Shown here piece after piece: positions 7,601 to 53,960 of a stretch of DNA of 54,649 bases; position 1 is the first letter of the stretch; each line of letters opens with the position of its first letter. The DNA is from Bacteroidales bacterium. Its GTDB lineage: Bacteria > Bacteroidota > Bacteroidia > Bacteroidales > UBA4181. The notes beneath the pieces are model-generated. The model did not search any database. It worked only from the letters and a program-made list of their open reading frames with translations, and was not told the DNA's origin. Location: assembly GCA_031551935.1 (NCBI GenBank), contig JAVBMZ010000088.1, positions 1 to 54,649 on the forward strand, given 5' to 3'. Made by a program: the position numbers and the translations under genes.

Positions 7601-10600
7601 GTAAACACTTTATTAGTGTAATTTCCTGTTCCTGTATTCAATGCACCGGTAGGCAAACGTTTTTCAGACCATCCGAATGTCACACCTGCTGTTGTTGAGG
7701 TAAAAGGAGCAATATTGGATGAAGCGCCCGAACATATCTCCTGGTTAGCTACTGGGTTGACTACCGGAGATTCTATAAAGGTCAGGATCACCTCATCCGA
7801 TTGGCTGGGCAAACCGCATGGGGTACTGAGTGTCCATCTGAATTTATATTCTCCGTAAGTTACCACTTGCACCCTTGTTTGATGGCTATGCACATCGGTA
7901 AAGGAAACAGGTTGTGCCCCCGGCGGACTACTAGTCAATATCCATTTTCCTTCCTCACCGGCCGAGGCTACATTGCCCTTCAATATGGCTGTTGTCCCAC
8001 AAATGCGCTGATCCTTATCTCCTATGATCGATGCTGTACCTGGCAATGAACCGAATGTTAATTTTACCGTATCCCTAGAAGGCGGGCATACCGATCCGTT
8101 GGATAAAGACCATTCCAACAGATATATGCCTGCACAACCCGAGGTAAAAACAGCATTAGGATCGGCAAGGTTACTAAATGATGTGCCGGCACATGTTGGC
8201 CCGGAAATGGTTCGCCATGCACCGTTGTGACCCGAAGGCGAATTGGCAACTAACGAGATCGTTTTTGTTGTTGGTGTCCAGCATACTCCATCATCCGCTC
8301 CTGCATTGGCCGCCGTAGGCTTGGCTACAGTAGTAATGGTATATACATTCGATAATGAAGTGGTACATTCTATCAGTATGGTACCTCCGGTATCTTTAGT
8401 AATTTCCGTAACACTCGTCAAAGTGATATAAGTTTGCGCTCCATCTGCCTGATTGATGATGGTTTTATCGATAATCAGTTGATGATTGCCCGTGCCACGG
8501 AATCTTTGCGGAGGTTGGGAGCCTGCCATATAACTGCTTGTATACGTTACCAAGAATTCAGTAGCATTATTATACCCTGCACCTGATATGGTGATGGGTA
8601 TGGTCGCATTGGCAGCCTCGCAATTAGGAACATTTGCTGCAATAGTGACATTCGGTGATTGCATCACTTCAATTTGGATCGTTGCATTGTTCAGGGAACT
8701 ATTGCTGCATTGTCCCTGAGATACAGAGTCAAGCGTGAAGGTATAAGTACCTGCTGTCGGGAAAGATAAGTTGCCGCCATATGGCGTATGATTGGCCACT
8801 TTGCCTGAACCATTACCAGGCACCAGCGATTGATAAGGAGAAGTGTATGAAGAACCAGGAGTATTTTTTAGAAAATATTTCCAATCCTTATTAGGAGTTC
8901 CGGTAAAATTAACCAATATATCCCCTTGAGCGCCCACACAAAGGAACAATTCGGCGGGGTGTATGATGGCCGTGGGTTTGGGCAATACCTGGATGGGTTT
9001 ATTCAAGGTATTGGAAGGACAATAATTGGTTGATGCACTGCCATTGATCACTGTAGGCGTTGTGTATTGCCATTGTACGGATACATTCCTCACCCCGTTG
9101 GTAATACGGTCGACAGCCGAACCGACTTGAAAAGTTGCCGGTGTTGAGGTGGAAGGCTGTACAGGATTGCTGTCAAATGTCCATTTAAACTGTGTAGTAC
9201 GGGTTGTCGTATTGCTACCGCCATCTGTGATGGTTTTGGTATCTGCAGATGCCCCGGCCATGGTATATGGCACACTACTTCCTTCGCACACTTCATCCTT
9301 GCCGCTGATAGCTGCCGGAGTTGTTAAAGTAAGCCTAGGCCTGGTCACCACTTGCACACTGGATGTCAATCCATCATTCACACACCCCGTAACCATATCC
9401 ATTAGCGTGAGAACACGGATCTCGTGAATACCGCCGGAGGCTAATGGGTCCAATCCACTATACGGAATAGACGTTAAACGTTCCTGAGGATTTGTTGAGG
9501 GAACGGTAAACGTACTAGCAGTGGCTTGTCCGGTTAGTTGTATTTTAAAACTTCTGTCAGCCACCAAACTTCCGCCAAAATTCTTGACAATGATAGTAGC
9601 CGACTCTCCTTCGCAGAGATCATTGATACCCGAAATGTTTACGGTTGGAAGCGCATGTACGGTGATGATTTTCATTGCGTTAGGTGGTGTGCAGATGTCT
9701 GGGTATTCTCTCCAACGTTTGGTGACAGTGGCTGTAAGCGCCCCCGTCGCGGTTAATTTCACCTTTACCTGGGTACTGTCGGCATTGGCATCCACAAATA
9801 TAACGCCTGACCCAAACGTCCACCGGTACTGAACATGAAAACGGGTAGGATCAGCCACGCTTTGTTGTAAAGTGCCTCCGGCACCCATTGCGTATAAGGT
9901 GATTGTTTCACCGATACATGCTTGTAAGAACTCCGCAGGCGGCGGAGTTAACTGGTCGAGGTTGAAAAAAACTATCTTGGCATAAGGACTTTCACAGTTA
10001 TATTCATTAAATACATTGGTCTCCTGGTTGGTTTGAACATACTTTACCCAATAGATTTTTTTCGCAGCAACCGACGGGTACAGCCGAGCTTCATCAATAT
10101 ACTTTATAAACTGCGCATCGGTGGGGTTGAAATTTTGAGTAGTCGTCGAAAAAATAACCCCTTTAACTTCATCCGGCTGTGTTCCTGTACCATCATCCAG
10201 ATACCATTCATATTTACCATTGGTAAGGGGCGCTGAATGAGTCAATGTAATATTATAGGCTGCAGGTTCGCTGCCAACGCAGACTATTTTTTCCTGCTCT
10301 TCAGGCTTCTCAGGTGCAGGTACAATACGCACAATCGCTTCAGTTTTTATGGCTATAGCTCTGTTGCCGGGATCCAGATTACATTGGTTCCAGTTGTACA
10401 TGGTTACGTAAAATTCTTTTCCTATATCTGCTACTGTAGTATTACCGGGTACAAAAATCTGACTGGTCGAAATACCAGTGCTTGGATAATCATCATTGGA
10501 ATTTAAGATAATTTTTGCTTTGTCTCCGTCGTTTTGCTTGGTGCCACCGTCGTAGAAGGTGCTGGTAAAAGGAAGACCGTTAATCTTGATTCCATCAATA

Positions 10601-11397
10601 TTACTGCTGCCAGAACCTTCTCCATAGCCAAATTGGATATAGCGTGGATCAAGATTTCGCGCAAGATCTCCCATTTTTGCAGCACAATTCAACCGGCTGA
10701 AATCAGTAAATCGAATGGTAGCCTCCTGTCCTACACATACCGGATAAATATGCGTTTTAGCGTTGGACTCTTTTAGAATCAAAGGGCTTGATCCTGAATA
10801 ATCGTCTGTTTGAAAGTATTGGGCAATATCTTTGATTTGCACAGCATTGTCAGACGAAAAAATAATGGCGTCTGATGGACGATGGCTACTTTTATATTTA
10901 AGATATACGTGTAGTTGAAAGGAGCATACATCGTGCCCTTTAGCATAAATATGTTCAAATTCACTGTCATAGTTGGCATTGAGATCATCACCATCACTGA
11001 AATAATATTTATAAGTGTTTTTCGTACGCGTAACCCTACCCGGTTTGATATTGATTTGAGACGACGTACCATCGCCCCATTCCACCACAATGGCCATATC
11101 TGTTGCTAAATTCGGATAGTTAACGCTATCACATCCTTGTGCGCCAAATGTTGTTCCGAGACTAAAAGAGCCGGCAATCTTTAATGTGATGGGTGCACAT
11201 TTTCCATCCCGATTGACATCGATAGATTTAGCATACACATCTAAACAGTCCGTACTTTGTCCATGAGCGTTTTCGCTTATGGTAAATCCAATAATCGCAC
11301 ACATCAACAGACACTTCCACAGGATCGTCAATTTGGCTTTTTTGCCAACAGATGTTTGTCTCATATTCATATACGACAGTTGTGTTTCATTAAGCAT
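1624..11397 (-). CDS. Giant secreted Ig-like/PKD-repeat adhesin-like protein with a T9SS type-B (gliding-motility-associated, CHU_C-like) C-terminal sorting domain
   Basis: Single ORF 1624..11442. The C-terminus LPNAFKPS.DG..ND...IFNRWGQMIFE....GWNG......EGIYIYKIEG......SKMGDLLLLR fits the type-B CTD pattern. Upstream of it are 6-7 PKD-type domains (VWDFGDGS, WRYGDGE, WWFGDGT, WKFGDGS, WDWGDNS). The centre holds about 20 tandem 75-100 aa modules ending in NGC.S/GC..-...-P.P boundaries. There is a signal-anchor LTILWKCLLMCAIIGFTISENAHGQ. I placed the start at the ATG at 11397 (MLNETQ...) by homology with the paralog leader; 11442 and two downstream ATGs remain possible. Confidence 0.9.
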   Translation of the reverse strand: MLNETQLSYMNMRQTSVGKKAKLTILWKCLLMCAIIGFTISENAHGQSTDCLDVYAKSIDVNRDGKCAPITLKIAGSFSLGTTFGAQGCDSVNYPNLATDMAIVVEWGDGTSSQINIKPGRVTRTKNTYKYYFSDGDDLNANYDSEFEHIYAKGHDVCSFQLHVYLKYKSSHRPSDAIIFSSDNAVQIKDIAQYFQTDDYSGSSPLILKESNAKTHIYPVCVGQEATIRFTDFSRLNCAAKMGDLARNLDPRYIQFGYGEGSGSSNIDGIKINGLPFTSTFYDGGTKQNDGDKAKIILNSNDDYPSTGISTSQIFVPGNTTVADIGKEFYVTMYNWNQCNLDPGNRAIAIKTEAIVRIVPAPEKPEEQEKIVCVGSEPAAYNITLTHSAPLTNGKYEWYLDDGTGTQPDEVKGVIFSTTTQNFNPTDAQFIKYIDEARLYPSVAAKKIYWVKYVQTNQETNVFNEYNCESPYAKIVFFNLDQLTPPPAEFLQACIGETITLYAMGAGGTLQQSVADPTRFHVQYRWTFGSGVIFVDANADSTQVKVKLTATGALTATVTKRWREYPDICTPPNAMKIITVHALPTVNISGINDLCEGESATIIVKNFGGSLVADRSFKIQLTGQATASTFTVPSTNPQERLTSIPYSGLDPLASGGIHEIRVLTLMDMVTGCVNDGLTSSVQVVTRPRLTLTTPAAISGKDEVCEGSSVPYTMAGASADTKTITDGGSNTTTRTTQFKWTFDSNPVQPSTSTPATFQVGSAVDRITNGVRNVSVQWQYTTPTVINGSASTNYCPSNTLNKPIQVLPKPTAIIHPAELFLCVGAQGDILVNFTGTPNKDWKYFLKNTPGSSYTSPYQSLVPGNGSGKVANHTPYGGNLSFPTAGTYTFTLDSVSQGQCSNSSLNNATIQIEVMQSPNVTIAANVPNCEAANATIPITISGAGYNNATEFLVTYTSSYMAGSQPPQRFRGTGNHQLIIDKTIINQADGAQTYITLTSVTEITKDTGGTILIECTTSLSNVYTITTVAKPTAANAGADDGVCWTPTTKTISLVANSPSGHNGAWRTISGPTCAGTSFSNLADPNAVFTSGCAGIYLLEWSLSNGSVCPPSRDTVKLTFGSLPGTASIIGDKDQRICGTTAILKGNVASAGEEGKWILTSSPPGAQPVSFTDVHSHQTRVQVVTYGEYKFRWTLSTPCGLPSQSDEVILTFIESPVVNPVANQEICSGASSNIAPFTSTTAGVTFGWSEKRLPTGALNTGTGNYTNKVFTNADGVNKDAYRIGVVAKNNGCISDSVSFTLTVKPKPQMSRPDSTVCAGTPVVFKLAKNIAGDYPVNYQWENTGNPAITSAVSPQIINNNPFTYSLPTTNVGNDSITGLFKISANVNGCVSDILRLMVQVNPIPNITVPADMGYCPNTPVPAGTIVFSSTVKKTEFIWGHQSGSYTSAPLLQGSKTATGSDLSVALDAFTTIDNTSASISETIRVSGTANGCTSPDKTFKISVNQRPNFSINNQTACPEDDGSVTFAPRFFVSNNVALPASVTYTWAVYDASNHMEKDGTGNFENTIFNPDATRFMLDNLTLNDKELNMVVEGSANGCVGTATAKLIIKARPIIELTPQVACPGDQVNITFRSRQVSGVSNYSFVWNNDETATGLSASGSVIGFSDASNVIQGNIPSFIATNSANTTFIQGNIRVRASYPYVKEGATAYCVGPEQTTTLTINPRPQLKNIPNDQTICAGVRVPKVPLTTQLTDPQVQVTYAWNTIMGSNLNIFSNSSISSGYGYGDSIPGFTAVYHANPAPTARINVTAAATYNGLGCTSSASYQITVQQAPSITAPASVAVCPGKWVLLSGISNSTSDPIYWTFDGVSDIIDPVKSDNYPSSGTGTPPSFWAVPNHTGSPIERYYTLKTSNTQYACTAPDKKIKVVLNPTPDVFFEGTPRLAYCDGSNVTLPDFKSNPILNGLGTITYHWERPSQLLNIGGAASGTTSSNHVTTHIPFFEAKNPSENKLKEVSNEYRVYATLNGCVGDTMSFQLTVHPVPQMYDIAHIASCSGTEITPDEFRLLPTIEPLPADADTNPDYFSWEITSPSQWFPESGIPGPPFGPVRGYLPTFTPDTIWGNMPQSIVIRVTPELNNCPGESKNILLTVNPIPQTAISAFGDNCIPADGIKAYDVDSYKADSKYTWGIEHPNPSTGIQPVFMNGANTGGRVRLQFDAGFDRVWEADLTLVEQNVFGCTGEKVFKHIAVMPKPIVDAGPDTVICSGQALVLNAKLVRGHSSNVTYEWNGGSISSDRNSLHPVINLTYTTPTVVSMYLRAILDGSCQGDFDTIRILVNPTPQALNFEDKAYCTSDKFMKMDISGGITHQVHWQRIEGTTAPYIYQNINNSTDSVSLSMNLASIHPNALPNSHFTTDTTIMYQVYQINQITGCTSPVSVAQMLIKQVPERPVIQDVAYCYKEQHIYHLEAQAIPQGQYSYIAWYEDAGKQNRLGDGIGYDIFQAGSSTFNGVNYVPFKYYAVAIGTSGCHSEMTEANLTIYPAPDVDFEHNFMSPNSRVCPPTPVIFTNKSVNTDLVTYVWDFGDGSALYPVNTLDSITYRYTNSTTQLSTKHIFLTATNSFGCVKSTDQFLSVGPQVIAEFVADTVGCAPVNIQFVSTTIGATGYRWRYGDGEPDDIDKKTTNHLFNNNTISELKYDVRLVTSNRWCSDSVSHAVHIYPKPNADFSVDVSQGCQPLVVIFNNTSNNLASDISYAYNFDDTFVDVSGDVLIPHEYPNLSGQSIRKQPTLTATNEWGCIATHSTDIIVAPYIKANFIMNKDAGCSPLRIDFTNGSEGYMDSEWWFGDGTTSLDKNTRHTFNNPSMSVDANYKVTLIVSTGGVGGCTDTMTRTVKVYGTPKAQFTLSPLTQDYIGRAPIAMNHLISDSPLQYTWSVAPYGSYTRGNVISHDAHPSPYMIDTWGKFDFQQKITNNAGLCPDSLKVTVTIIAPAPVAGFEPVAPGCAPYKVQFIPQAPSYADYYEWKFGDGSYASYATNPEHTYWDAGTYVVKLIVRNSNGQADSIEHTVVVNPTPQIVFEVKPESMSVGQSVRAFNYTNHATSTGQSYPVWYRWDWGDNSPTDTLANPLHVYQKAGDFTITLTAGTYTNPQCVASVSLTKTLQVNDTEDIVLPNAFKPSIDGVPSNDIHPSGYQNNLFYPPVLSPVRKYSLTIFNRWGQMIFETKDPTKGWNGYHNGRLCDEGIYIYKIEGVFETGQSFSKMGDLLLLR

Positions 11398-11451
11398 AGC
11401 ATGTATACAATGTTTTTCACCATATACACGAGATGATAACATCCCTTAATC

Positions 11452-21891: not shown

Positions 21892-22155
21892 ATATTTTTC
21901 TTTTCTAAGAGGATGCAAAGGTATTTTTTTTACCAAAAGTTTGCAAATTATTCTCTATCTTCGAAAGGGTAAACGCATCTAATTTTGTTTTTATTCATAC
22001 TGTGCCTGTAATCATCAGTATTGATGTTCAAAAAGCCTATATTTTCACGGCTTCACCGTTTGTCCAAAAATTAACTTTTTGAATAACCTCAACCCGTTTT
22101 GGACACGGTTCGTCTGTGAGTCGCACAACTTCCTTTCCTTTGGGGAGAGAGGCCT

Positions 22156-22322
22156 CTATAAAATAGCTATTGTTGACAATTTTATAGCTTTTTTTAGCTA
22201 TTTTATAGCGAAAGATCGCTATAAATATGTTATTTTTAGCTATGATATAGTGGTCTTCCGCTATATAATAGCGGAACTTAGCTATTCTTTATTGGTTTTA
22301 TAAATCAATATATCAGATATTT
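22156..22322 (+). repeat. Dispersed phased-palindrome element, copy 1 (chain of ATAGC/GCTAT half-sites)
   Basis: TAGC/TAGT cores at 22164, 22185, 22195, 22206, 22237, 22248, 22269 and 22279, giving spacings of 21, 10, 11, 31, 11, 21, 10. Overlapping palindromes include ATAGCT-T6-AGCTAT, GCTAT-TTT-ATAGC, ATAGCGA-AAGA-TCGCTAT and CCGCTAT-ATA-ATAGCGG. It is homologous to the reverse complement of 32979..33150. Confidence 0.8.
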
Positions 22323-22451
22323 CGTACTGTACGTCGAAGTTTTCAGCATCGGCGCAACAAATAAGTGGTTCTTCAGGCGACTCGCAGCCGGCCTTGCCGG
22401 ACTTCATATGTATGAACCGGCGATTGTTCTTCGACGAATTTCGGCACGTAC

Positions 22452-22973
22452 TCAAAAAATCTGTTGTATTTCCCTTTTGAGTTCGTAAATAGCCTTTTCA
22501 GTCGGTGGTTGTTCCAGTCCCATGGTCATATTGAGGATAGTTCTACTCAATTCGATAGAAGGAGCTCCGTCCTCAACATCTTTTGCAGCGTTGTTGATCA
22601 GTGTAACGGTATAATTCTTGGCATTCTTCACGCTTTCCCATGCTTCTGGAGATAAATACAATTGTTGTGACAGGTTGTGCTCAAATTCAGCGCGAATCGT
22701 TTGCAATAGTTCCGCATGTAATTGTGCACATGTGCTGACCGGATAATTAGCACGCATCACCAATGATTCCGGCGAAATACGTTCTAAAAATAGTATCAAC
22801 CGCTCGTATGCCTGTAATCGGATGGGCGTAATCAGCTTTTGATTTCCCCTGATAACTTTTAATTTTTGGCGGCTTTCGCTGTTACGGAAAAAACTTCCTA
22901 CAATGTAGTAAATGGCCATCAACATGATGATAGATGGCAATGTGATCTTGATAATTTCAATAAAGTCTTTCAT
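22452..22973 (-). CDS. Hypothetical N-terminally membrane-anchored protein
   Basis: 173-aa ORF with the TM segment LPSIIMLMAIYYIVGSFF. Confidence 0.6.
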   Translation of the reverse strand: MKDFIEIIKITLPSIIMLMAIYYIVGSFFRNSESRQKLKVIRGNQKLITPIRLQAYERLILFLERISPESLVMRANYPVSTCAQLHAELLQTIRAEFEHNLSQQLYLSPEAWESVKNAKNYTVTLINNAAKDVEDGAPSIELSRTILNMTMGLEQPPTEKAIYELKREIQQIF

Positions 22974-23064
22974 TATTTTTAGGTTTCAAATGTGAAATTT
23001 CCAAATTTCCGATTGAACAGTTTTACCAATATTTAAAGTTCAACCGGAAATTTGAACCGTTTCA

Positions 23065-23574
23065 CTACCAGTGATTCAAATGTATCCGTTCCGGGTAAAA
23101 ACGTTCAGGTTGTGGTAATTGTTGATCTGGATATCCCACCGAGATGATGGAAAAAGCGTGAATGTATGCTGGCAGGCTGAGCAACTCTTTCATAGCTGAC
23201 ACTCGTTCGGGGCGGGGATATATGCCAAGCCAGACAGCGCCAAATCCCATACCATGTGCCGCCAAAAGGATGTTCTCAGTAGCAGCGGCACAATCCACCG
23301 GCCAATAATCAGGCGTGTGGGCTAATTGTTCATCACCGCATACCACAATACCCCATTGGGCATGTTCCAGCATTTTGGTATATGGTTGGAACTCCAAGAT
23401 TTTTTTGAAAATTTCCTTGTCATTCAATAAGATAAAATGCCAAGGTTGCTTGTTACGTGCTGAAGGTGCATACATGCCGTATTTGATCAGTTCTTCGATT
23501 TGTTCGCGCGTAATCACCTTGTCGGTATATTTCCTGATACTGCGCCGGGAAAGAATTCCTGTTAATATGTCCAT
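23065..23574 (-). CDS. Nitroreductase family protein
   Basis: ILSRRSIRKYTDK...APSARNKQPWHFILL is a typical nitroreductase signature. Confidence 0.8.
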   Translation of the reverse strand: MDILTGILSRRSIRKYTDKVITREQIEELIKYGMYAPSARNKQPWHFILLNDKEIFKKILEFQPYTKMLEHAQWGIVVCGDEQLAHTPDYWPVDCAAATENILLAAHGMGFGAVWLGIYPRPERVSAMKELLSLPAYIHAFSIISVGYPDQQLPQPERFYPERIHLNHW

Positions 23575-23642
23575 AGATTATTTTTTCAATCAATCATTTT
23601 AACGACACCTGGCCATAAAGGTCAGCGTCATATGAGGTTATT

Positions 23643-24917
23643 CTATTGCAATGCTTGATATACCGTATTGAGAAATTTTTCCCAAACTTTGGTATCGGGG
23701 ACACGGTTGGTATACAACAAAATAATCAATCCTTCTTTTGGATCGATCAAATAGTCGGTATTATACATACCGCCCCATTGGAGCGATCCTGGAGACACCA
23801 TCGGCGTAAAATTGGCAACACCTTTACGTTCTGTCTCCTTGCAGGGATAGATTTCGAATCCTAGTCCAAAATGAAAATCTGGTCCTCCGTTGTTGGGATG
23901 AGGAAGTTGGTCGACACTCATCATTTCGATGGTACGCCGGCCCAGGATGCGCTTTCCGTTGAATGTACCATAGTTGAGAATCATTTGGCAAAAACGGGCA
24001 TAATCTTCAATCGGACCGTTCAATCCGGTTCCCGCTTGACAATAGCGGGTGTCAGCGGAAAACGGATTTCTGCCACTCCATACGTCGCTTTGAGGTACCA
24101 ATTTGCCGTCTTTCTCGTTATATGCAGTGACCATCCGCGAACGATAGCTTTCGGGATAGTACCAATCAGAGTTGCTCATGCCCAATGGATTCAGGATGGT
24201 TTCTTTTACATAGTCGCGCAGCGATTTTCCCGAAAAATATTCCACCAAATAACCCCATACATCCGATGCAGGGTGATAGTTCCACTGCGTGCCAGGATCG
24301 AAAGCCAAAGGAAGTTGTACCAGATCTTTGACCTCTTCGGCCAGAGTCTCGTATGGTTTGTTGTTGCGTTTCTTTATCTGTTCCTGTCGAAGTGTCTGTA
24401 ATTCGCGGGTACCCATGATACCCGACGTATGACTGAGCAGATGCCGGATGGTGAGTGGCGAAGCGGCAGGACGTGTAGTGTATGTCCCGTCTGGTTTTAA
24501 CTGCACCAATACCAGATCAGTGCATTCAGGAATATATTTCGAAACAGGATCGTCTAATTGGAATTTACCCTGTTCAAACAAGGTCATCAGTGCTACCGTG
24601 GTAACAGCCTTGGTTTGGGAATAGTTCCGGAAGATATCATCTTTTTTCAGCGCTTTCTTACTTTCGATATCGCTCCATCCAAACGCTTTATAGTGAATCA
24701 CTACGCCATTTTTTGCGACAAAAGTAAGTGCTTGGGGAATGATTCCTTTATCAACATATTCCTGTAACAATTGATCAATATAGGATAAACGGTCAGCAGA
24801 TACGTGCAATGCCTGGGGAATGGTAGTTGCATATTCGAATTTTTGCGGTTTAGGCTGTGCCAATGCAACATAAAAAGTGCAACATAGAGTAATAAAAAAA
24901 GCGAATGATGTTTTCAT
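23643..24917 (-). CDS. Serine hydrolase of the beta-lactamase/PBP4*-like family, secreted
   Basis: SxxK motif YSQTKAVT and signal peptide MKTSFAFFITLCCTFYVALAQ. I prefer the start at 24917 over the track start at 24974. Confidence 0.75.
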   Translation of the reverse strand: MKTSFAFFITLCCTFYVALAQPKPQKFEYATTIPQALHVSADRLSYIDQLLQEYVDKGIIPQALTFVAKNGVVIHYKAFGWSDIESKKALKKDDIFRNYSQTKAVTTVALMTLFEQGKFQLDDPVSKYIPECTDLVLVQLKPDGTYTTRPAASPLTIRHLLSHTSGIMGTRELQTLRQEQIKKRNNKPYETLAEEVKDLVQLPLAFDPGTQWNYHPASDVWGYLVEYFSGKSLRDYVKETILNPLGMSNSDWYYPESYRSRMVTAYNEKDGKLVPQSDVWSGRNPFSADTRYCQAGTGLNGPIEDYARFCQMILNYGTFNGKRILGRRTIEMMSVDQLPHPNNGGPDFHFGLGFEIYPCKETERKGVANFTPMVSPGSLQWGGMYNTDYLIDPKEGLIILLYTNRVPDTKVWEKFLNTVYQALQ

Positions 24918-25019
24918 AAGCGATGAATGATTAACAATTAAATAATGACGTAAATGATACAAAACCAGCATCAAGCAAGCATATCAATGTATGGCATGTG
25001 ACAAACTTGTTGTGGCAGG

Positions 25020-25667
25020 TTATTTATGTATCCATATATCATCATAATACAATTCAAGTTTATCGGCAACTACATTATTATCGTTCTGAATTATAGTCTT
25101 TTCTATTTCAACATTCTTATTATCTATCCAATTAATTTTAGATGGGCCCCAATCATCCGGATAAAGTTCATACTCTTTGATAAAAGAACCATTTTTTATT
25201 TGATAAATCACGAATCCATTATCCGAATATCCAGCTTCAAGGTCAACATTATAAGATATGATTCTTTTTTTGTCTGGTGATATTTGAATTAATCCAGGTA
25301 TATCAATTGAATTACCAGTAATCTTATGAATCAATACATATGAAAGGCCTTCATAGTGTTGGATGGTAATTAAATAAGAATTGATATCTTTAAAGTAATC
25401 TCGAAACGTATACCATTTACCATCATCTGTTTCTTTATCTGCATCTTTAAATATTAAATTATCAGATTTATCAATAGTAATTATTAGTTGATCATTGTCT
25501 CTTTTTACTATCTTGTTAAATCTTTTAAGTTGATATTCTTCAATCTTTTGTGAGCACTCGTATGAATTACCAATATCATTACAGATTGTAGAAAAATCAA
25601 TTTCGCTCGTTCTGTTACAAGCAATATTTAAGATGAGCAATACAAATAAAATATACTTCATATTCAA
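25020..25667 (-). CDS. Hypothetical lipoprotein encoded by a markedly AT-rich gene
   Basis: 215-aa ORF with signal and lipobox FVLLILNIACN. The composition is visibly more AT-rich than both neighbours. Confidence 0.6.
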   Translation of the reverse strand: MNMKYILFVLLILNIACNRTSEIDFSTICNDIGNSYECSQKIEEYQLKRFNKIVKRDNDQLIITIDKSDNLIFKDADKETDDGKWYTFRDYFKDINSYLITIQHYEGLSYVLIHKITGNSIDIPGLIQISPDKKRIISYNVDLEAGYSDNGFVIYQIKNGSFIKEYELYPDDWGPSKINWIDNKNVEIEKTIIQNDNNVVADKLELYYDDIWIHK

Positions 25668-25753
25668 AATTTTTGGCCAGATGTCATTTTTAAATTGGCC
25701 ACAACATGATGTTGGTGGTAAACATATTCCGATTTTTTAAAGGCTGATCGATA

Positions 25754-26707
25754 CTAAACGATATTTAGCTTTGTCAAGCACTCCGTTACATTCCTTTCAA
25801 TACGTTGTGCTAAGTTCCCGATATCGCTTCTTTGAAAAGGTTCGCCGGTAATGTTTTCATACAATTCGATGTAACGTTCCGACACTTGATGGACATATTC
25901 ATCAGTCATTTCGGGAACCTGTTGGCCTTCCTGCCCTTGAAATCCGTTTTCGATAAGCCACTGGCGTACAAATTCTTTCGACAGTTGTTTTTGTTGCTCT
26001 CCTTTAGCCAAACGCTCTTCGTAACCTTTAGCGTAGAAATAACGCGACGAATCCGGCGTATGTATCTCGTCTATCAAATAAATCTTGCCGTCCCTTTTTC
26101 CGAACTCATACTTGGTATCAACCAGTATCAACCCTTTTTCAGCCGCCATCTGGGTTCCTCGTGCAAACAAGGCCTGTGTGTATTTTTCCAATTGAACATA
26201 ATCTGTTTCCGACACAAGTCCCTGTTCGATAATTTCTTCACGCGAAATATCCAAGTCATGTCCTTCTGCCGCTTTAGTCGTTGGAGTGATGATCGGGCGG
26301 TCGAATTTTTGATTTTCTTTCATCCCGTCGGGAAGCGGAATGCCACATAAAACACGATTACCATCTCTATATTCGCGCCAAGCGTGCCCTGTGAGATAAC
26401 CGCGGATGACCATCTCCACTTTAAATGGATCGCAACGAACGCCAACGGTTACCATCGGATCAGGCGAAGCTACTTTCCAGTTAGGAACAATATCGGCAGT
26501 GGCATCCAAGAATTTGGCGGCAATTTGATTCAAAACCTGCCCCTTGTATGGAATACCTTTAGGTAATACCACGTCGAATGCAGAAATACGATCGCTGACC
26601 ACCATCACCAAATAACGGTTGTCAATATCATAAACGTCCCTTACTTTTCCTACGTAAAGGCCTTTTTGTTTTGGAAAATGAAAATCAGTTTTTACTAATG
26701 CGTTCAT
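25754..26707 (-). CDS. purC: Phosphoribosylaminoimidazole-succinocarboxamide (SAICAR) synthase
   Basis: GKVRDVYDI...[13 protein letters not shown] and [11 protein letters not shown]. Confidence 0.9.
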
Positions 26708-26786
26708 GTTTTATGATTTCAAGTTTGGTGTTCCGGGTTTTGGTCTACAAGCTTTATGAGTACTCCACCCGAAACTTTAAGCGTCT

Positions 26787-27692
26787 TTATTTAAGTTCTT
26801 TATTGGTTGTTTTCGTTTTTGAAGCAATATCCATCAAAACATCCATACCATTTGCCTTGAGAGAACCTTTGATATTTTGCGACAATTCGGAAGATATGGG
26901 CATTCCTGTTTTGACATTGACCTCCATGGTACCCGTTTGTATCCCACTTAATTTGCCTTCCATTCCCGCCGAAGGAACCATACTAATTACAGATTCGATA
27001 CCAATGCTTGCTGTATTCCGTTGCACATTTTTTAAAGTATACTTGGTCTTCATTTCCAAATTCATGCCTGAAACAGACATGACTTGACTTGCTTCCCAAC
27101 TATCACCTTCTTTGACAAGATTGGCAGGGTATATTTTCAGTGATTGTTCAAATTGGTTTTTTATAGTTTCATTATTAAATTGTTGCTTCATGGAAGCACC
27201 AACCTGCATGGCCATTGGTCCATCGGCAGCTACGGCTTGGGACATACTTTCGGCAATGGCATCCATACCTGTCACCGAGCTTACCGAACCGTCGGATGCA
27301 ATGTGCATTTCGAAAGGTTTCCCGATCAAACTACCTAACATTTTTCCCATCATCTTGTCCATTTCCGAAGGATTTTCGAGCGGATTTTTTGAATCGTAGC
27401 CCATTTTCATCATAGCGCTCGAAAGCACATAAGATATATCCTGATACGTACATTGTGCTACTGTTTCTTTAGTATTTTTTTCTTTAATATTCATGATATA
27501 GCTCATGGTCACATCCATTTCCATAGGTATTTCCTGACCCATTGCTGTTTGTTTGAGCAATTGAACTGTTTCTTGCGTGTATTGGTATTTCGTTCCTTTT
27601 TCAGGGTTGAACGATAATTTAACCTGTGCCGATGCCGTAGATAACATCAACGAAAGGGATAAAAAAGCAAATACAATTTTTCTCATTTTCAT
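26787..27692 (-). CDS. Hypothetical secreted Met-rich protein
   Basis: I prefer the start MKMRKIVFAFLSLSLMLSTASAQ at 27692, which is 4 nt after the phoH stop. The track start at 27749 would overlap phoH. There are many Met clusters, such as SSAMMKMGYD and EMDKMMGKMLG. Confidence 0.6.
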   Translation of the reverse strand: MKMRKIVFAFLSLSLMLSTASAQVKLSFNPEKGTKYQYTQETVQLLKQTAMGQEIPMEMDVTMSYIMNIKEKNTKETVAQCTYQDISYVLSSAMMKMGYDSKNPLENPSEMDKMMGKMLGSLIGKPFEMHIASDGSVSSVTGMDAIAESMSQAVAADGPMAMQVGASMKQQFNNETIKNQFEQSLKIYPANLVKEGDSWEASQVMSVSGMNLEMKTKYTLKNVQRNTASIGIESVISMVPSAGMEGKLSGIQTGTMEVNVKTGMPISSELSQNIKGSLKANGMDVLMDIASKTKTTNKELK

Positions 27693-27696
27693 TTTT

Positions 27697-28665
27697 TTAG
27701 TTTTTAAGGTGGTTATTTTTCTCTTCTTGTGTTTCGTATGCTGCAACAATATCTTTTACCAACGGATGTCGGATAATATCACGTTGGTCGAAATAAATCA
27801 CCGATATTCCCTCGATGTTTTTCAAGATTTGGACAGTAGAACTCAGTCCTGAAAGGCTTTTGTTGGGAAGGTCAATCTGGGTAATGTCCCCGGTAACGAT
27901 AAATTTAGCATTCCGTCCCATCCGGGTCAAGAACATTTTCAATTGGTTGACGGTTGCATTTTGCGCTTCATCAAGTATCACAAAAGCATTATCGAGCGTT
28001 CTTCCCCGCATGTAAGCCAAAGGCGCTATTTGTACTGTTCCTTCTTCGATAAGATCAATCAGTTTCTTCGGTGGAATCATATCATGCAGTGCGTCATACA
28101 GTGGTTGCAGGTATGGATCAAGTTTTTCCTTCATATCGCCCGGTAAAAACCCAAGTTTTTCACCCGCCTCCACGGCTGGTCGCGTGAGGATAATTTTTTT
28201 CACCGCCTTACTTTTGAACGCAGCTACTGCTAAGGCAATGGCTGTATATGTTTTACCTGTTCCGGCAGGTCCAATGGCAAAAAGCAAATCGTGGGTTTTA
28301 TATTCATCCGCCAAACGTTGCTGGTTGACTGTTCGAGCACGGATACTTCTACCATTGTTGCCATATACAATCACATCGTCTTCCCCTTCAGGCAAATTCA
28401 ACCGAGAGGACACTGTGTCGTTCATGATGTTGATAACGTCGGCTTCCGTGAGGCGTTGGTATTTTTGGTGGTAGTTTATCAGGAGAGTCAGGGCGTTTTC
28501 AAAACGTTGCAACTCGGAAGCTTCGCCCATCACCTTAATTTCATCGCCACGTGCAACGATCTTAAGTTTAGGAAAAAAACTTTTTATTTTTTCATACAAC
28601 AAATTATTGACGCCATACAGTTCAAGAGGGTCGATTCCCTCCAAATATACCACTTTTTCTACCAT
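27697..28665 (-). CDS. phoH: PhoH-family ATPase
   Basis: Walker A GPAGTGKTY, and ILDEAQN. Confidence 0.9.
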   Translation of the reverse strand: MVEKVVYLEGIDPLELYGVNNLLYEKIKSFFPKLKIVARGDEIKVMGEASELQRFENALTLLINYHQKYQRLTEADVINIMNDTVSSRLNLPEGEDDVIVYGNNGRSIRARTVNQQRLADEYKTHDLLFAIGPAGTGKTYTAIALAVAAFKSKAVKKIILTRPAVEAGEKLGFLPGDMKEKLDPYLQPLYDALHDMIPPKKLIDLIEEGTVQIAPLAYMRGRTLDNAFVILDEAQNATVNQLKMFLTRMGRNAKFIVTGDITQIDLPNKSLSGLSSTVQILKNIEGISVIYFDQRDIIRHPLVKDIVAAYETQEEKNNHLKN

Positions 28666-28929
28666 CGAAACATAGTATCACTAAATATCCACGGCCAATA
28701 ATTTTAATAATTTAGCCCAGACGATGCAAAAATAATAAAATAATGAATGAATGTTGACAATACAGGATGTAAAACTTTTTTCACAACTCATTTGTGATAA
28801 ATTTTTGATTTTCAAAGTAATAATATATATTGTCAAATCTCAATAATTCAAAGCCGTTTGACGTATATCTATTTTAGGTACTTTTGTACGGAAAACCCAT
28901 ACGGGTTTTCATGTTATTTACACACGCAA

Positions 28930-29928
28930 GTGAAACAGACAAAAAAAATAGGTAAAATCGTTACATTGACGGTATTAACCGTTGTGATCTTATTTTATCT
29001 ATTGCCAAACGTCACCCATATTGAGCAATCGCTGGAGATCGATGCGCCACCTGATAAAATATTTGATCTCATCAACCGGCCGGATAGATGGGCGGAATGG
29101 TATGTACCGCTTCAAGATAAAGCAGGTGTCCAAATCCGATTTTCAGGCCCTTCAGAGGGTAAAGGAGCTAGTATGAGATGGGTGAGTGATGGCGCCAAAA
29201 TAACGGGCGGAACAATGACCATCAGGAACTCGAGAAGTAACCGGAATGTATCGACGGTGGTTGATATTGATAAGAGGCATTCGGCGGTGATGACTTTTTC
29301 TATAAAACCGTTCAAAAAAGATGCTTCATTACTGACAGTTACTTCGCGGTTGCGATTTCCGCAAGACAGTTTATTACACTACCTCCGGATGATGTTCGAT
29401 AGGTCGGAAGAATTAGAAATCATCGATTATCTTGAAAACATCAGTGATGTAGCTACTGCAAAAGCTGAAGGCATCACAGTGCGTCTACAGCAAGTTGAAC
29501 CATTCACATACATCAGCATTATCGATAGTTGTGCGTGGGAGCATGTTTCATTGCGCATGGGAGGTTTGTACGAGGAATTGAATGCATTTATAGCAACATC
29601 TGGTATCACAACCATCAATAAACCAATTGCCATATACCATCAACTCAGTGCGGGAAAAGTTGTTTATGAACTGGGGATACCTGTCAACGAGGAGGTCCAA
29701 CCTACCGGACGGATACAGAAAAAAATAATGCGTGGGGGAAATAATGTGGTAGCTGATTATTACGGCCCATATGATACTTTGGAAGACGGACATAATGCCG
29801 TCCAGCAGTGGCTGATCCGTTACGGACGAAGAATTAACGGTTATCCGTGGGAAATGTATGTAATCAATATAGCTACCGAATCTGATCCCCACAAATGGTT
29901 AACCCGTATTTTTTATCCTGTGGATTGA
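28930..29928 (+). CDS. SRPBCC (START/polyketide-cyclase-like) domain fused to a GyrI-like small-molecule-binding domain, with an N-terminal TM anchor
   Basis: C-terminal GyrI-like block GPYDTLEDGHNAVQQWL...GYPWEMYV. The N-terminal anchor is IVTLTVLTVVILFYLL. I prefer the GTG start at 28930, because the track TTG at 28858 would read through a strong hairpin at 28891..28910. Confidence 0.6.
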   Translation: MKQTKKIGKIVTLTVLTVVILFYLLPNVTHIEQSLEIDAPPDKIFDLINRPDRWAEWYVPLQDKAGVQIRFSGPSEGKGASMRWVSDGAKITGGTMTIRNSRSNRNVSTVVDIDKRHSAVMTFSIKPFKKDASLLTVTSRLRFPQDSLLHYLRMMFDRSEELEIIDYLENISDVATAKAEGITVRLQQVEPFTYISIIDSCAWEHVSLRMGGLYEELNAFIATSGITTINKPIAIYHQLSAGKVVYELGIPVNEEVQPTGRIQKKIMRGGNNVVADYYGPYDTLEDGHNAVQQWLIRYGRRINGYPWEMYVINIATESDPHKWLTRIFYPVD

Positions 29929-29989
29929 ATCGTTGAAAACAATATATAGGTTGTCCTTGTTGTTTAATAAACAATCAAAAAGAACGTGT

Positions 29990-30532
29990 ATGAAAAAGAT
30001 AACTTTATTGATTTTAGTATTTTGTTGTTGGACAAGTTTTACTCAGGCGCAAATCCACTTAGGGATTAAGGGTGGTCTCAATTTTGCCAAATTCAATACC
30101 GACGACATGACATTGGATAATGCCACCGGTTGGCAAGCTGGTTTATTACTCCAATTTAAAGTTCCCATCATTGGTCTTGGTCTGCAACCCGAATTACTCT
30201 ATTCTGTCAAAAAAGCAGATGTTGATGGCCAATCTAACAGCATCGGCTATTTTGAAATCCCAGTAAACATTAGATGGGCAATTGAATTACCATTGATTCG
30301 TCCGTATATCTTGGTGGGGCCGTATTTTAGTTACGCCGCTGATTTTAGCGGAGACGCTTTTAAAAATGGGCTTGATCGTTTCGACTGGGGTATTGGCTTA
30401 GGCGGTGGTGTCGAAATTTGGAAAATACAAATAGGAATACGTTATTCCTGGGGGTTACAGAATATTTCCAGCGTGGACGACTTCAAGCTGAAAAATAACA
30501 CATTCTCCTTGTCAGCAGCATTTTTATTTTAG
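29990..30532 (+). CDS. Small outer-membrane beta-barrel protein (OmpA-like/porin-family barrel)
   Basis: Signal peptide MKKITLLILVFCCWTSFTQAQ, alternating beta-strand pattern, and a C-terminal ...FSLSAAFLF aromatic end. Confidence 0.7.
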   Translation: MKKITLLILVFCCWTSFTQAQIHLGIKGGLNFAKFNTDDMTLDNATGWQAGLLLQFKVPIIGLGLQPELLYSVKKADVDGQSNSIGYFEIPVNIRWAIELPLIRPYILVGPYFSYAADFSGDAFKNGLDRFDWGIGLGGGVEIWKIQIGIRYSWGLQNISSVDDFKLKNNTFSLSAAFLF

Positions 30533-30558
30533 CGTTATCACAATGTGTCACTCATGTT

Positions 30559-30594
30559 AAAACCTATCGAACTTTCAAAGTTAGATAGGTTTTT
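30559..30594. terminator. Bidirectional hairpin between the convergent OMP and dprA genes
   Basis: AAAACCTATC-15 nt-GATAGGTTTTT. Confidence 0.55.
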
Positions 30595-30617
30595 CCCTTT
30601 ATATACAGAATCCATTC

Positions 30618-31721
30618 TCAAACGGTTCGGTACATTTTCCCGGGAAGGCTGCGTATACAGCCCGACAATTCAAGGTTCAATAACAACGGTGATACTTTGC
30701 TGACGGGCATATTGAGCAAGACGCTCAAATTATCGATGGCGCATTCGCCATGTTGTTTCAAATGAAGTAAAAGCATCTCTTCTTCAGGAGATACGGAAGG
30801 AAATAATTCTCGTTGTGTAGGTGTTGTATTCAGTGGTATTTTGTCATCATCCCAATTCATCAGGTATTCGATATCTTTCACGGACTGCAATAGGCTGGCT
30901 TTATTGGTTTTTATCAGCCAGTTACATCCGGAGGAATATTCATCCGTTAATCGGCCGGGAAAAGCGAAGACATCGCGATTATATGAATTGGCAATATCAG
31001 CAGTAATCAATGCGCCTCCGCGCATGTTGGATTCAACTACAATTGTCAAATCAGCTAATCCGGCAATCAAACGGTTGCGACGAACAAAATTATTGCGGTC
31101 GATAAGACTGTCACTCAGAAATTCAGTAAGTAAAGCGCCTTGTCCGGCAATTTCACGGGCAGTGGCGGCATGTGTTGCAGGATAGATTTGTGATAGCCCA
31201 TGCCCTAATACTGCGATTGTCGGCAACCCGTTACGTAGCGCTGCCCTGTGTGCACATATGTCGATACCATAAGCCAAGCCACTCACCACAATAGGATGAT
31301 GAGGATAGAGTTCGTCAACAATTTTGTTGCAGAGTTCTTTTCCATATGACGTCGCTTTTCTGGTGCCTACAATGCTCACAATTTTCGAGTGTTCAAAATC
31401 TACATTGCCTTTATAAAAAAATATCACTGGTGAGTCTGGACAATTTTTCAGCCGCCGTGGATAATTATCGTCTAAATAAAAGGAATAGTTGATTTGATGG
31501 CGATGCATAAAATCAATTTCTTTTTCAGCCCGCTTTAATATATCCTGATTGACCACCGACGTAGCCAATACTTCTCCTACATTCGGTATTTTCAGTAAAT
31601 TAGCTTTTTTCTCATGAAACACGGCCTCAACACCTCCACAATATGAGATGAGTTTTTTAGCCATCATATCCCCAATACCGGGAATCAAACCGATACCAAT
31701 TTTGTATATCAAATCATCCAT
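30618..31721 (-). CDS. dprA: DNA-processing protein DprA/Smf
   Basis: IVSIVGTRKATSYG...VVSGLAYGIDICAHRAAL...AVLGHG is a typical DprA Rossmann core. Confidence 0.85.
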   Translation of the reverse strand: MDDLIYKIGIGLIPGIGDMMAKKLISYCGGVEAVFHEKKANLLKIPNVGEVLATSVVNQDILKRAEKEIDFMHRHQINYSFYLDDNYPRRLKNCPDSPVIFFYKGNVDFEHSKIVSIVGTRKATSYGKELCNKIVDELYPHHPIVVSGLAYGIDICAHRAALRNGLPTIAVLGHGLSQIYPATHAATAREIAGQGALLTEFLSDSLIDRNNFVRRNRLIAGLADLTIVVESNMRGGALITADIANSYNRDVFAFPGRLTDEYSSGCNWLIKTNKASLLQSVKDIEYLMNWDDDKIPLNTTPTQRELFPSVSPEEEMLLLHLKQHGECAIDNLSVLLNMPVSKVSPLLLNLELSGCIRSLPGKMYRTV

Positions 31722-31729
31722 ATACGGAT

Positions 31730-32776
31730 TTATCCGATTTCGATGTTTTGTCCGCTCCGGCTGCTTTCCATGGCGGCTTCAATCAGGTGGATTACATTTA
31801 AGGCTTGTTCCGGACGCACCTCTAGTTCAACATGATTCCTGATCACATCGTAAATGTTGTCGTAATAAGCAGCATAATTACCCGCAATAGTTTCCACTTT
31901 ACCGCGTATGTGCATTCCGTTGATGTCGGTGTTCAATAATCCCCAATGTGCCCCATCCTCCTTTCCCCAATTGGGCATCGATGGATTGCCACCTTGATTT
32001 AACATTTCTTCTTGCGGATCAATACCATATTTCAGGAATGAGCCAAGGGTACCGTGCAAGGTGTAACGGGCACTTTCTTCGCGAACCAGATAGCTCGCCC
32101 TCAGCGTAACTTTAATTTCAGGGTATATCAATTTAATGTGGTAAAAATCATCTACCTCACTTCCCGTACGCATGCTATCAATATCAGCCCATACGGCTTC
32201 CGGCATACCAAACAACACCAACGCCTGGTCAATCATATGTGATCCCAGTGCATAGGTAATCCCTATACTTTGTATCGCTGATTCTTTCCATGAGTTGGGT
32301 TGTATATAATTACGATACCGCATATAATTTGACTCAAATTCCACCAATCTCCCTAACCATTGGTTTTCAATAATTTTGCGCACCGTCAGGAAATCGCCAT
32401 CCCATCTCCGGTTTTGAAAAACACTCAACATTTTGTTGTGTTTGTCCGCTAAATTGATCAAATCCTCGCCTTGCCCAATGGTATGTGTAAAAGGCTTTTC
32501 TACAATGACGTGCTTCCCTGCCTCAAGTGCTTTATGTGTATATTCGAAATGGGTAGGATCCGGTGTATTGACAACGATTAATTCGATATTATCATCCTTG
32601 AGTAGCTCATCAAACGAACGAACAACGGTAACATTCGGATAATATTTTGAGGACTCGTTTTTAGTACGTTCCACAATTTTGTCCAGATGAAACCCAGGAT
32701 GATTGGCTAAAATAGGGGCATGGAACACTTTTCCCGACATTCCGAAAGAGGCTAAACCAACTTGTATCTTATGCAT
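31730..32776 (-). CDS. Gfo/Idh/MocA family oxidoreductase
   Basis: N-terminal Rossmann segment IQVGLASFGMSGKVFHAPIL and EKPF motif VIVEKPFTH. I prefer the start at 32776 (MHKIQVG). Confidence 0.8.
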   Translation of the reverse strand: MHKIQVGLASFGMSGKVFHAPILANHPGFHLDKIVERTKNESSKYYPNVTVVRSFDELLKDDNIELIVVNTPDPTHFEYTHKALEAGKHVIVEKPFTHTIGQGEDLINLADKHNKMLSVFQNRRWDGDFLTVRKIIENQWLGRLVEFESNYMRYRNYIQPNSWKESAIQSIGITYALGSHMIDQALVLFGMPEAVWADIDSMRTGSEVDDFYHIKLIYPEIKVTLRASYLVREESARYTLHGTLGSFLKYGIDPQEEMLNQGGNPSMPNWGKEDGAHWGLLNTDINGMHIRGKVETIAGNYAAYYDNIYDVIRNHVELEVRPEQALNVIHLIEAAMESSRSGQNIEIG

Positions 32777-32978
32777 ACGCTGAAAATTTGGAGATTCAAT
32801 TGATGCGTCCAAGTTACATCATTTATCAACAAACCACAATGGTTTTTGCAAAATTATTGCGCGCTAAGTTTTTTTGCGACATGATATCAGTGTTTTTTAT
32901 GAACAAGGCACTTTAAAAAAGACCGCCACCTGCCAGACAGACGAAGTAGTCTCAAGCAGATCAAGATCATCAAGGTGT

Positions 32979-33150
32979 AAATGTCTGACATATTGATTCG
33001 TCAAATGACCACAAAAATAAAAATAGCTAAATTCCACTATAAAATAGTGAAAAATCGCTATAAAATAGCTAAGAAAAACATAATAGTAGTGATATGCTAT
33101 TATATAGCTAAAAATAGCTATAAAGTTGTCAAAAACAGCTATTTTTATGA
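32979..33150 (-). repeat. Dispersed phased-palindrome element, copy 2, inverted relative to copy 1
   Basis: The reverse complement aligns by hand with 22156..22322 over these blocks: ATAAAAATAGCTGTTTTTGACAACTTTATAGCTATTTTTAGCTAT, TTAGCTATTTTATAGCGA, CACTATTTTATAGTGGAATTTAGCTATT and AATCAATATGTCAGACATTT. TAGC/TAGT cores lie at 33024, 33045, 33066, 33084/33087, 33105, 33115 and 33136. Confidence 0.8.
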
Positions 33151-49798: not shown

Positions 49799-50176
49799 TT
49801 ATGATGCCAGTTCGGGCGGGTGGTCGATAGTTCCGTAAGTATATAACGAAGACATAGTTTCTTCGATGAGGAGAAATATTTTATATGTCAACACATACGG
49901 GCGTTCCAGCTCAGTAAAAGTCATCAAGCTCTGGTCGATCAAAGGCTGTGCAGTCTTTGCAGAATTGTATGATTCCGGAGAATCACCATCTTCATCAATG
50001 TAGTTGTACCAGCCAGCCCAGCCAATAATCAATTCGAGAAGGCTGTTAATTTCGGAGCTCGATACGGCTTGTGTGTTGTATATTTCGGTGCCGGGCATAG
50101 CCACAAAAAGTCCCCTGTTGATATAGAATATCAACAGACAAGCCATCATGAAATATTTAAACCACGTGCGACACAT
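49799..50176 (-). CDS. Hypothetical small membrane-anchored protein upstream of the czc operon
   Basis: The first ATG, at 50176, gives MCRTWFKYFMMACLLIFYINRGLFVAMPG; the track start at 50215 is TTG. There is an acidic stretch YIDEDGDSPESY. Confidence 0.5.
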   Translation of the reverse strand: MCRTWFKYFMMACLLIFYINRGLFVAMPGTEIYNTQAVSSSEINSLLELIIGWAGWYNYIDEDGDSPESYNSAKTAQPLIDQSLMTFTELERPYVLTYKIFLLIEETMSSLYTYGTIDHPPELAS

Positions 50177-50246
50177 TATGTTGCAAAAATAAGATATTTC
50201 GAAATAATATTGCAAAAATAATATGTTGTTTGTCTTTTTTGATACA

Positions 50247-52935: not shown

Positions 52936-53059
52936 AATATTTTTTCTAAAAATATGGATATAGATGCAAATTTAGACAATAAAGTGATTTAAATTTTTTC
53001 AAACATAAAAGCAATTCAAAAAAATATATTTTTATCTGATTATCAATAAATTATAAATG

Positions 53060-53872: not shown

Positions 53873-53960
53873 ATAAAAAATCCGTCTTTCAAAATATTTT
53901 TTTACAACATTGTAAGTTTTTTATGATTATAGCAACTAATAGCGTAAATAATCAATTCAA

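Follow-up and report, generated by a model that had tools for sequence, protein, structure and literature searches.

REP/BIME/REPIN, BOX, Correia and ERIC elements are short, palindrome-rich repeats dispersed in intergenic DNA, which act chiefly through a single long hairpin or a pair of them and of which a genome typically has tens to hundreds of near-identical copies; REP/BIME/REPIN elements are marked by an imperfect palindrome of 20–40 nt with a conserved head tetranucleotide and by a RAYT gene, and some repeats of these types carry IHF or gyrase sites and influence neighbouring transcription. Iteron and centromere arrays, such as parC/ParR and the 20-bp repeats of pSK41, consist of 5–10 phased sites of 10–22 bp, usually direct repeats, which are occupied cooperatively to give a curved filament and which adjoin rep or par genes on plasmids. 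To our knowledge, a strict 10.5/21-bp lattice built from one 13-bp dyad is not reported for any REP/BIME/REPIN, BOX, Correia or ERIC element. In the Bacteroidales, BrickBuilt and MITE464/PgRS repeats have been described from Porphyromonas gingivalis (Klein et al. 2015, PMC4596501). BrickBuilt consists of 1 to 23 nearly identical direct repeats arranged head to tail, between a leader and a tail that end in the IS5-type terminal inverted repeats GAGACCTTTGCA/TGCAAAGGTCTC (PMC4596501). Dimers of the Lrp/AsnC (feast/famine regulatory) proteins, in turn, occupy 13-bp dyads of the form abcdeWWWe'd'c'b'a' (Yokoyama et al. 2009, PMC2715240). For the element analysed here, BrickBuilt-type Bacteroidales repeats are the closest analogues in genomic behaviour, and Lrp/AsnC-type dyads in the form of the sites.

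The window, i.e., the whole 54,649-bp stretch of DNA that was analysed, is ordinary Bacteroidales chromosome with relA/spoT, tmk, thrS-infC-rplT, purC, phoH, dprA, an RND efflux system and ECF sigma factors. The element occurs in it twice, as copy 1 between thrS, which starts at 21892, and the gene for a DUF7935 membrane protein, which stops at 22452, and as copy 2 between the stop of an alpha/beta hydrolase gene (33178) and a GFO/MocA oxidoreductase (GFO) gene. The features of copy 1 are as follows.

22156 to 22293, plus strand: array of seven 21-bp units, one 13-bp RCTAT-WWW-ATAGY dyad at the centre of each
22161, 22182, 22203, 22224, 22245, 22266 and 22287: centres of the seven dyads
22197 to 22209, no strand: best dyad, GCTAT-TTT-ATAGC
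22155 to 22167, 22239 to 22251 and 22260 to 22272: further dyads
22294 to 22302, plus strand: short, T-rich linker joining array to tail, 8 nt shorter than in copy 2
22303 to 22322, plus strand: non-repeat tail, AATCAATATATCAGATAT(TT), common to copy 2; homology stops here

The seven dyads of copy 1 stand on a lattice with a period of 21 bp. A single good half-site is left in units 2, 4 and 7, and the dyad at 22260–22272 extends to TTCCGCTAT-ATA-ATAGCGGAA. Ten exact ATAGC/GCTAT 5-mers fall within 22163–22285, against a background of 122 in the 54,649 bp of the window, or ~0.33 per 150 bp; likewise, the dyad GCTATNNNATAGC (GCTAT-N3-ATAGC, up to one mismatch) occurs seven times in the window where 1.15 are expected, and six of these matches lie inside the clusters of copies 1 and 2. 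The original prediction, made on copy 1, of a chain of ATAGC/GCTAT palindromes was essentially right in sequence and coordinates. All five palindromes that it listed are present and its end coordinate, 22322, is where homology to copy 2 ends; the 'TAGC core' that it placed at 22248 actually reads TAGT. Its proposal that the half-sites share one helical face is borne out by Rayleigh analysis of the implied centres in copy 1, which gives R=0.996 at 10.5 bp, a value as high being reached by 0 of 20,000 random placements, and R=0.82 at 21 bp. In both copies, AAA/TTT tracts are phased at 10.5–11.5 bp with a power above that of all 500 of 500 dinucleotide shuffles, and the DNA is therefore predicted to be intrinsically bent. 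The units of copy 1 are only 64–73% alike (TRF scores 2.2 copies), and the linkers inside one copy have diverged almost to randomness while ~11 of 13 half-sites are still near-perfect.

A scan of the window for half-site density gave one further cluster, at 33023–33142, and the two copies align in inverted orientation (22160–22322 with 33145–32979) at 76% identity over 171 bp (E 2e-28).

32979 to 33150, inverted relative to copy 1: full extent of copy 2, seven units and an 18-nt tail as in copy 1
33016 to 33150, minus strand: array, seven units in the order of copy 1
33144, 33123, 33102, 33081, 33063, 33042 and 33021, minus strand: centres of the dyads
33057 to 33069, no strand: best dyad, GCTAT-AAA-ATAGC
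33036 to 33048 (ACTAT-AAA-ATAGT) and 33096 to 33108: further dyads
32999 to 33015, minus strand: linker, with a TATTTTTG box at 33012–33019 (minus strand) that is absent from copy 1
32979 to 32998, minus strand: tail, AATCAATATGTCAGACAT(TT), 16 of 18 positions matching copy 1

Homology between the copies is not confined to the motif. Unit-specific features recur in both, for example TTGACAA (unit 2), TATGTT (unit 4) and, within unit 6, the extended TTCCGCTAT/ATAGCGGAA dyad, and the 18-nt non-repeat tail AATCAATATRTCAGAYAT, which follows a linker of variable length, is found in the window at these two copies alone. Shared linkers and a shared tail indicate that the copies descend from one another, and are not operators that evolved independently. 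Copy 2 keeps the seven units and their 21-bp lattice except at unit 4, which has lost 3 bp, so that its spacings run 21, 21, 21, 18, 21 and 21 bp and its R at 10.5 bp drops to 0.61. As this deletion turns one half of the array by ~100 degrees against the other half, strict phasing of the whole array appears not to be essential. As a minor observation, the tail contains a stretch, AATCAATATATCA, that differs by one mismatch from WATCAANNNNTTR, an IHF-type sequence.

Three further members were found by searching protein databases with translations of the element. These are translations of spurious ORFs, P0121, P0122 and P0125, each a singleton at NCBI, on contigs of 16.4, 8.9 and 15.9 kb, which match the window at the two copies only, with 57–79% amino-acid identity, and keep a 7-codon register of IA/IV (Ile-Ala/Ile-Val, i.e., ATAGY) and xY (x-Tyr, i.e., RCTAT); the translation of P0122 also spans the tail. 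All three copies presumably belong to the same assembly as the window. The DNA-level comparison accordingly rests on two copies, the other three being known as protein translations. Searches of other collections returned nothing related: a protein search with the translated frame of copy 1 had no match, plasmid and phage BLAST with the element had none, the exact pattern TTTATAGCTNTTTTTAGCTAT gave nothing but chance matches in GTDB representative genomes, IMG/VR and JGI metagenomes, ATAGCTAANTTCCNCTAT gave chance matches in IMG/VR, and two dyads set 8–38 bp apart retrieved from GTDB genomes many unrelated tandem repeats that contain the palindrome by chance. The GTDB, IMG/VR and JGI scans used exact patterns, which the P0121 copy at least would escape, and absence from other species is not proven by them. 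TATAGC/GCTATA-type palindromes recur in tandem arrays of many phyla, with no homology to the window element; two unrelated arrays of this kind (L005 60–250 and L092 1–420) were encountered, one upstream of an ORF in a Chloroflexi MAG and the other in an iteron-rich, plasmid- or phage-like metagenome contig. In the window itself, an isolated near-dyad, GCTATAAAATTGC, is present at 53620 inside an ORF-poor stretch of ~1 kb (52936–53960) that has fragmented frames and no ORF of 100 aa or more, and that may be a decayed gene or an IS remnant.

The nearest relatives are uncultured Bacteroidales MAGs, whose DUF7935 and GFO proteins are 78–85% identical to those of the window at the amino-acid level, and in the closest of them the matching loci are free of the element. 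These relatives keep the gene orders phoH-DUF6263-purC-nitroreductase-DUF7935 and GFO-dprA, and synteny with the window breaks exactly at the positions of copy 1 and copy 2. In one relative the order is DUF7935-M16 peptidase-thrS, and in five the gene immediately upstream of GFO is a divergent one for a LytTR response regulator, conservation of the GFO promoter region extending to about window position 32890. Directly 3' of DUF7935, short tandem arrays unrelated to the element occur in several relatives (L010 4624–4768, L020 4515–4635, L044 4539–4681, L074 4524–4646 and L021 4721–4948) with periods of 23, 7/21, 21, 10/20 and 46 bp, the units of the L010 array containing a CACAT...ATGTG dyad. 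Since the array is downstream of DUF7935 in 5 of 12 array-bearing loci, this spot seems to be repeat-prone across the clade. In one MAG, GCA_031554535.1, two contigs (L200 6522–6737 and L201 6552–6768) carry different DUF7935 genes, 84% and 83% identical to that of the window, and both stop ~215 bp downstream of DUF7935 with no ATAGC array; these ends hint at a strain mixture and at assembly-breaking sequence past the contig ends.

Taken together, it can be stated with high confidence that the element is a small, lineage-restricted, non-coding dispersed repeat. It shares with MITEs small size, lack of coding capacity, several dispersed copies and presence or absence between relatives. A classical MITE is nevertheless rejected, because terminal inverted repeats and target duplications are lacking: the left end (TATAAAATAGCT...) and the right end (...TCAGAYATTT), compared in both copies, have motif-derived similarity alone, and the flanks of copy 1 (GGCCTC|...|CGTACTG) and copy 2 (GGTATT|...|ACACCTT) contain no target-site duplication. 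No transposase was found near either copy within the 54.6-kb window. Membership of a MITE or IS-related repeat had been named as an outcome that would overturn the first interpretation; dispersed-repeat behaviour was indeed found, but in an element unlike any named repeat.

What has been conserved between the copies is informative as to function. CTAT/ATAG core positions are identical at 45 of 48, other positions at 61 of 91 (Fisher p=3e-4), and the symmetrised profile of 14 units is RCTAT-WWW-ATAGY, with C-5/G+5 and A-3/T+3 each present in 25 of 28 cases and the three central positions A/T in 26–27 of 28. The consensus folds equally well on both strands (-28.25 vs -27.9 kcal/mol). Moreover, among the 65 complementary pairs of the lattice-defined dyads in copy 1, 49 are unchanged in copy 2, 3 are compensated and 13 are broken, and the number compensated is not above chance (3 vs a null of 1.9, p=0.29). 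Conservation of cores over linkers, strand symmetry and the lack of excess compensation favour recognition of duplex DNA by a protein. The conserved property would thus be half-site sequence on one helical face of duplex DNA, resembling a cooperative protein-binding array, although some of the core conservation may be owed to recent common ancestry or to gene conversion.

Coding and CRISPR interpretations were rejected. In both copies a single open frame spans the array, the 3-bp indel being in frame, because the 21-nt lattice keeps TAG out of that frame; 52% amino-acid identity at 76% nucleotide identity is the neutral expectation, and the frame of copy 2 has no start codon there. CRISPR arrays have repeats of 24–48 bp set apart by unique spacers, together with cas genes; with a period of 21 bp, no spacers and no cas domains among the ORFs scanned, the array is not a CRISPR array, and the earlier statement that the element is non-coding, not a CRISPR array and not a simple terminator stands, the frame being neutral and the strands folding equally. 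A minus-strand ORF of 57 aa (22282–22455) that begins with TTG shares 4 nt with the stop of DUF7935 and runs to the array's first TAG; it gave no Pfam match and is probably spurious.

At about even chances, the reading that we favour is that this ~165–175-bp dispersed repeat carries its phased dyad array as a platform for one sequence-specific protein. The element comprises a fixed seven-unit 21-bp dyad array, a short linker and a unique 18-nt tail. The array would act as double-stranded DNA, along which dimers of the predicted protein line up next to one another, one per two helical turns, all on a single face of a duplex that is intrinsically bent. We infer with moderate confidence that the array is a platform of this kind, with dimers of a single DNA-binding protein two turns apart. 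Copies would have spread via duplication or mobilisation of the whole unit, and any influence on thrS or other neighbours, through bending, insulation or occlusion, would be a side effect of the landing site. The candidate binder may be a host nucleoid or regulatory protein, as the Lrp/AsnC-type site form suggests, or the enzyme that mobilises the element. Among the window ORFs scanned near the copies, no candidate binding protein or transposase was found; the DNA-binding proteins detected among scanned ORFs were two ECF sigma factors only, ~18–21 kb from copy 2. DUF7935 was rejected as the binder: it lacks a DNA-binding domain and has a membrane helix at its N-terminus.

The original prediction had likewise proposed a protein-binding array and had named iterons and centromere-like sites among its models. 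Recognition of the duplex is favoured here, but the iteron or centromere model is weakened, no rep, par or other regulator gene adjoining either copy. Phased sites on one DNA face are common to such arrays and the element; the latter differs in being chromosomal and multi-copy, with no rep or par gene within 54.6 kb and no plasmid or phage match. It resembles REP/BIME/REPIN, BOX, Correia and ERIC elements in being dispersed, short, palindrome-rich and intergenic, but its copies are only 76% identical, and no RAYT or parent IS was seen in the 54.6-kb window. OxyR-type sites, an ATAG-N7-CTAT tetrad with a core-centre spacing of 11, were also considered and rejected, since the core-centre spacings here alternate between 7 and 14 bp.

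A bolder extension, which we hold to be rather unlikely, is that scattered seven-dyad arrays serve as chromosomal 'landing pads', each bound on one face by a protein filament or wrap. The protein could be Lrp/AsnC-like, a new nucleoid-associated factor or a domesticated mobilisation protein. Such arrays would give shape to the chromosome locally or insulate the transcription units beside them. Catalogues of small dispersed repeats are poor for uncultured Bacteroidales, common as these repeats are; there they interrupt assemblies and mark points of rearrangement. The unusual trait of this family is its fixed, almost crystalline lattice of a single dyad, which leads to the testable prediction of a cognate binding protein. 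If that prediction is true, the family would open a way into how the nucleoid is organised, or repeats are mobilised, in a lineage without genetics; if it is false, nothing sets the thrS neighbourhood apart in regulatory terms, and the element joins the other selfish repeats that are specific to a lineage.

That second outcome is the alternative that survives best, possible though on balance unlikely. It holds that the element, MITE-like or derived from a minisatellite, is a dispersed repeat of selfish or neutral nature that binds nothing, the dyads being relics of an ancestral 21-bp tandem duplication and core conservation a reflection of shared ancestry, gene conversion or mutational bias. 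The family is indeed multi-copy, lineage-restricted, always intergenic and placed at synteny breakpoints, unrelated tandem arrays occupy the same spot downstream of DUF7935 in relatives, and Bacteroidales have species-specific repeats with ~23-nt tandem units (BrickBuilt, PMC4596501). The likeness to BrickBuilt concerns genomic behaviour, no sequence similarity being seen: both belong to Bacteroidales, both are small, non-coding, species-restricted, multi-copy and always intergenic, both lie tens to hundreds of bp from flanking genes among which those for aminoacyl-tRNA synthetases and peptidases are frequent, and both combine units of about two helical turns (23 nt in BrickBuilt, 21 nt here) with a non-repetitive flank, here the tail. 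In contrast to the near-identical BrickBuilt units, those of the window element have only the dyad cores in common, and both DNA copies have seven of them in the same order. A BrickBuilt-type minisatellite was rejected because the units are not near-identical, their number is fixed and IS5-type ends are lacking. The terminal repeats GAGACCTTTGCA/TGCAAAGGTCTC were not found in the window element, and an IS5/BrickBuilt-like terminal repeat, GAGGCCTC, which adjoins copy 1, has no counterpart at copy 2, nor does any other part of the window match it well. What speaks against a purely selfish or neutral repeat is that linkers are near-random beside near-perfect half-sites, within a copy and likewise between copies, that unit number is constant at seven, and that there are no terminal inverted repeats or target-site duplications.

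A function at the level of RNA, as a small RNA, a 3'-UTR stabiliser or a (bidirectional) hairpin terminator, is considered improbable. It would account for the folding of either strand of either copy, much stronger than that of shuffled controls (z from -4.9 to -7.9), for a terminator-like site in copy 1, for the 9-bp stem of the dyad at 22256–22276, which survives a G:C to A:T double change, and for the arrangement in copy 2 of the TATTTTTG box, the tail and then the following hairpin.

32926 to 32944, minus strand: terminator-like hairpin followed by a T-run, separating the copy 2 tail from the GFO promoter

On the minus strand, this arrangement (32926–33019) could yield a transcript of ~80 nt; copy 1 has neither the TATTTTTG box nor such a terminator. 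The minimum-free-energy folds, however, differ between the copies (copy 1 folds to a 107-nt imperfect hairpin, copy 2 does not), there is no strand preference, compensation is at chance level with 13 of 65 dyad pairs broken, and candidate promoters and terminators are not common to both copies. No Rfam family matched at gathering score, relaxed thresholds giving plant miRNA/snoRNA noise. In addition, as the four flanking genes are all on the minus strand and copies 1 and 2 are oppositely oriented, orientation relative to flanking transcription is not conserved.

Equally hard to sustain, and very unlikely, is the idea that the array serves a regulator of thrS, or of a regulon, as a dedicated operator, e.g., an Lrp/AsnC-type feast/famine regulator wrapping upstream DNA. 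Bacteroidetes promoters follow the consensus TAnnTTTG/TTTG, and likely promoter boxes of the two downstream genes can be placed as follows.

21916 to 21923, minus strand: likely thrS -7 box of Bacteroidetes type, TACCTTTG, with the thrS ATG at 21892 and TTTG ~20 nt upstream; outside the element
32849 to 32856, minus strand: likely GFO/MocA oxidoreductase -7 box, TAATTTTG, in a promoter region conserved in relatives that lack the element

The operator model draws on multiple sites phased at two helical turns, on the position of one copy upstream of an aminoacyl-tRNA synthetase operon, and on dyads that have the abcdeWWWe'd'c'b'a' form of Lrp/AsnC dimer sites (PMC2715240). The likeness to Lrp/AsnC sites, one of form only, lies in a 13-bp dyad with an A/T centre and in the presence of several sites, bound cooperatively by a DNA-wrapping multimer in the case of Lrp/AsnC. 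The RCTAT half-site, however, matches no listed optimum (PMC2715240), the arrays lie far from promoters, 160–370 bp from the -7 boxes of thrS and GFO (230–370 bp for copy 1 and the TACCTTTG box), the copies share descent and not the motif alone, their homology running through linkers and the non-motif tail, and no Lrp/AsnC regulator gene is present in the window. Relatives have no element upstream of thrS and GFO, yet promoter-proximal sequence is conserved; the genes downstream of the copies are unrelated in function, and none of those nearby encodes a regulator. Promoter distance, paralogous copies beside unrelated genes and absence upstream of the thrS of relatives together make a dedicated thrS operator unlikely. 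The description of the element as thrS-upstream is therefore sound as to its intergenic position and loose otherwise, the likely -7 box being 230–370 bp away, and the view of it as a locus-specific array gives way to one in which a second, inverted copy lies 10.7 kb away, at least three more are inferred and the loci of relatives do not have it. The plus-strand promoter box, TAATTTTG, that had been thought to point toward copy 1 sits at 21980–21987 with no TTTG at the usual -33; boxes of this type number 84 in the window and copy 2 has no equivalent promoter, so that it is weak evidence.

That the inverted copies are recombination sites or transposon-like ends of an invertible or mobile 10.7-kb segment (22323–32978) is extremely improbable. 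In its favour, the copies are inverted with their tails pointing inward to that segment, both lie on synteny breakpoints, and Tn7-, Mu- and IS21-type elements typically have multi-site ends. Against it, the segment encloses housekeeping genes, the orders phoH-DUF6263-purC-...-DUF7935 and GFO-dprA are conserved in element-free relatives, no recombinase or transposase was found inside or nearby, GC skew and gene strand are continuous across both copies, and more copies exist on other contigs. Inversion of the segment was rejected as well, there being no skew or strand discontinuity and the gene order of relatives not needing it.

Some other features of the window were noted. A 59-nt stretch at 50175–50233 is 76% similar to 32829–32885, both being upstream of minus-strand genes, and this likeness may be one of shared promoter-type sequence; a 14-bp tandem repeat, TTGCAAAAATAATA, is located at 50181–50224. 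A giant ORF of 3,272 aa occupies 1624–11442 on the minus strand.
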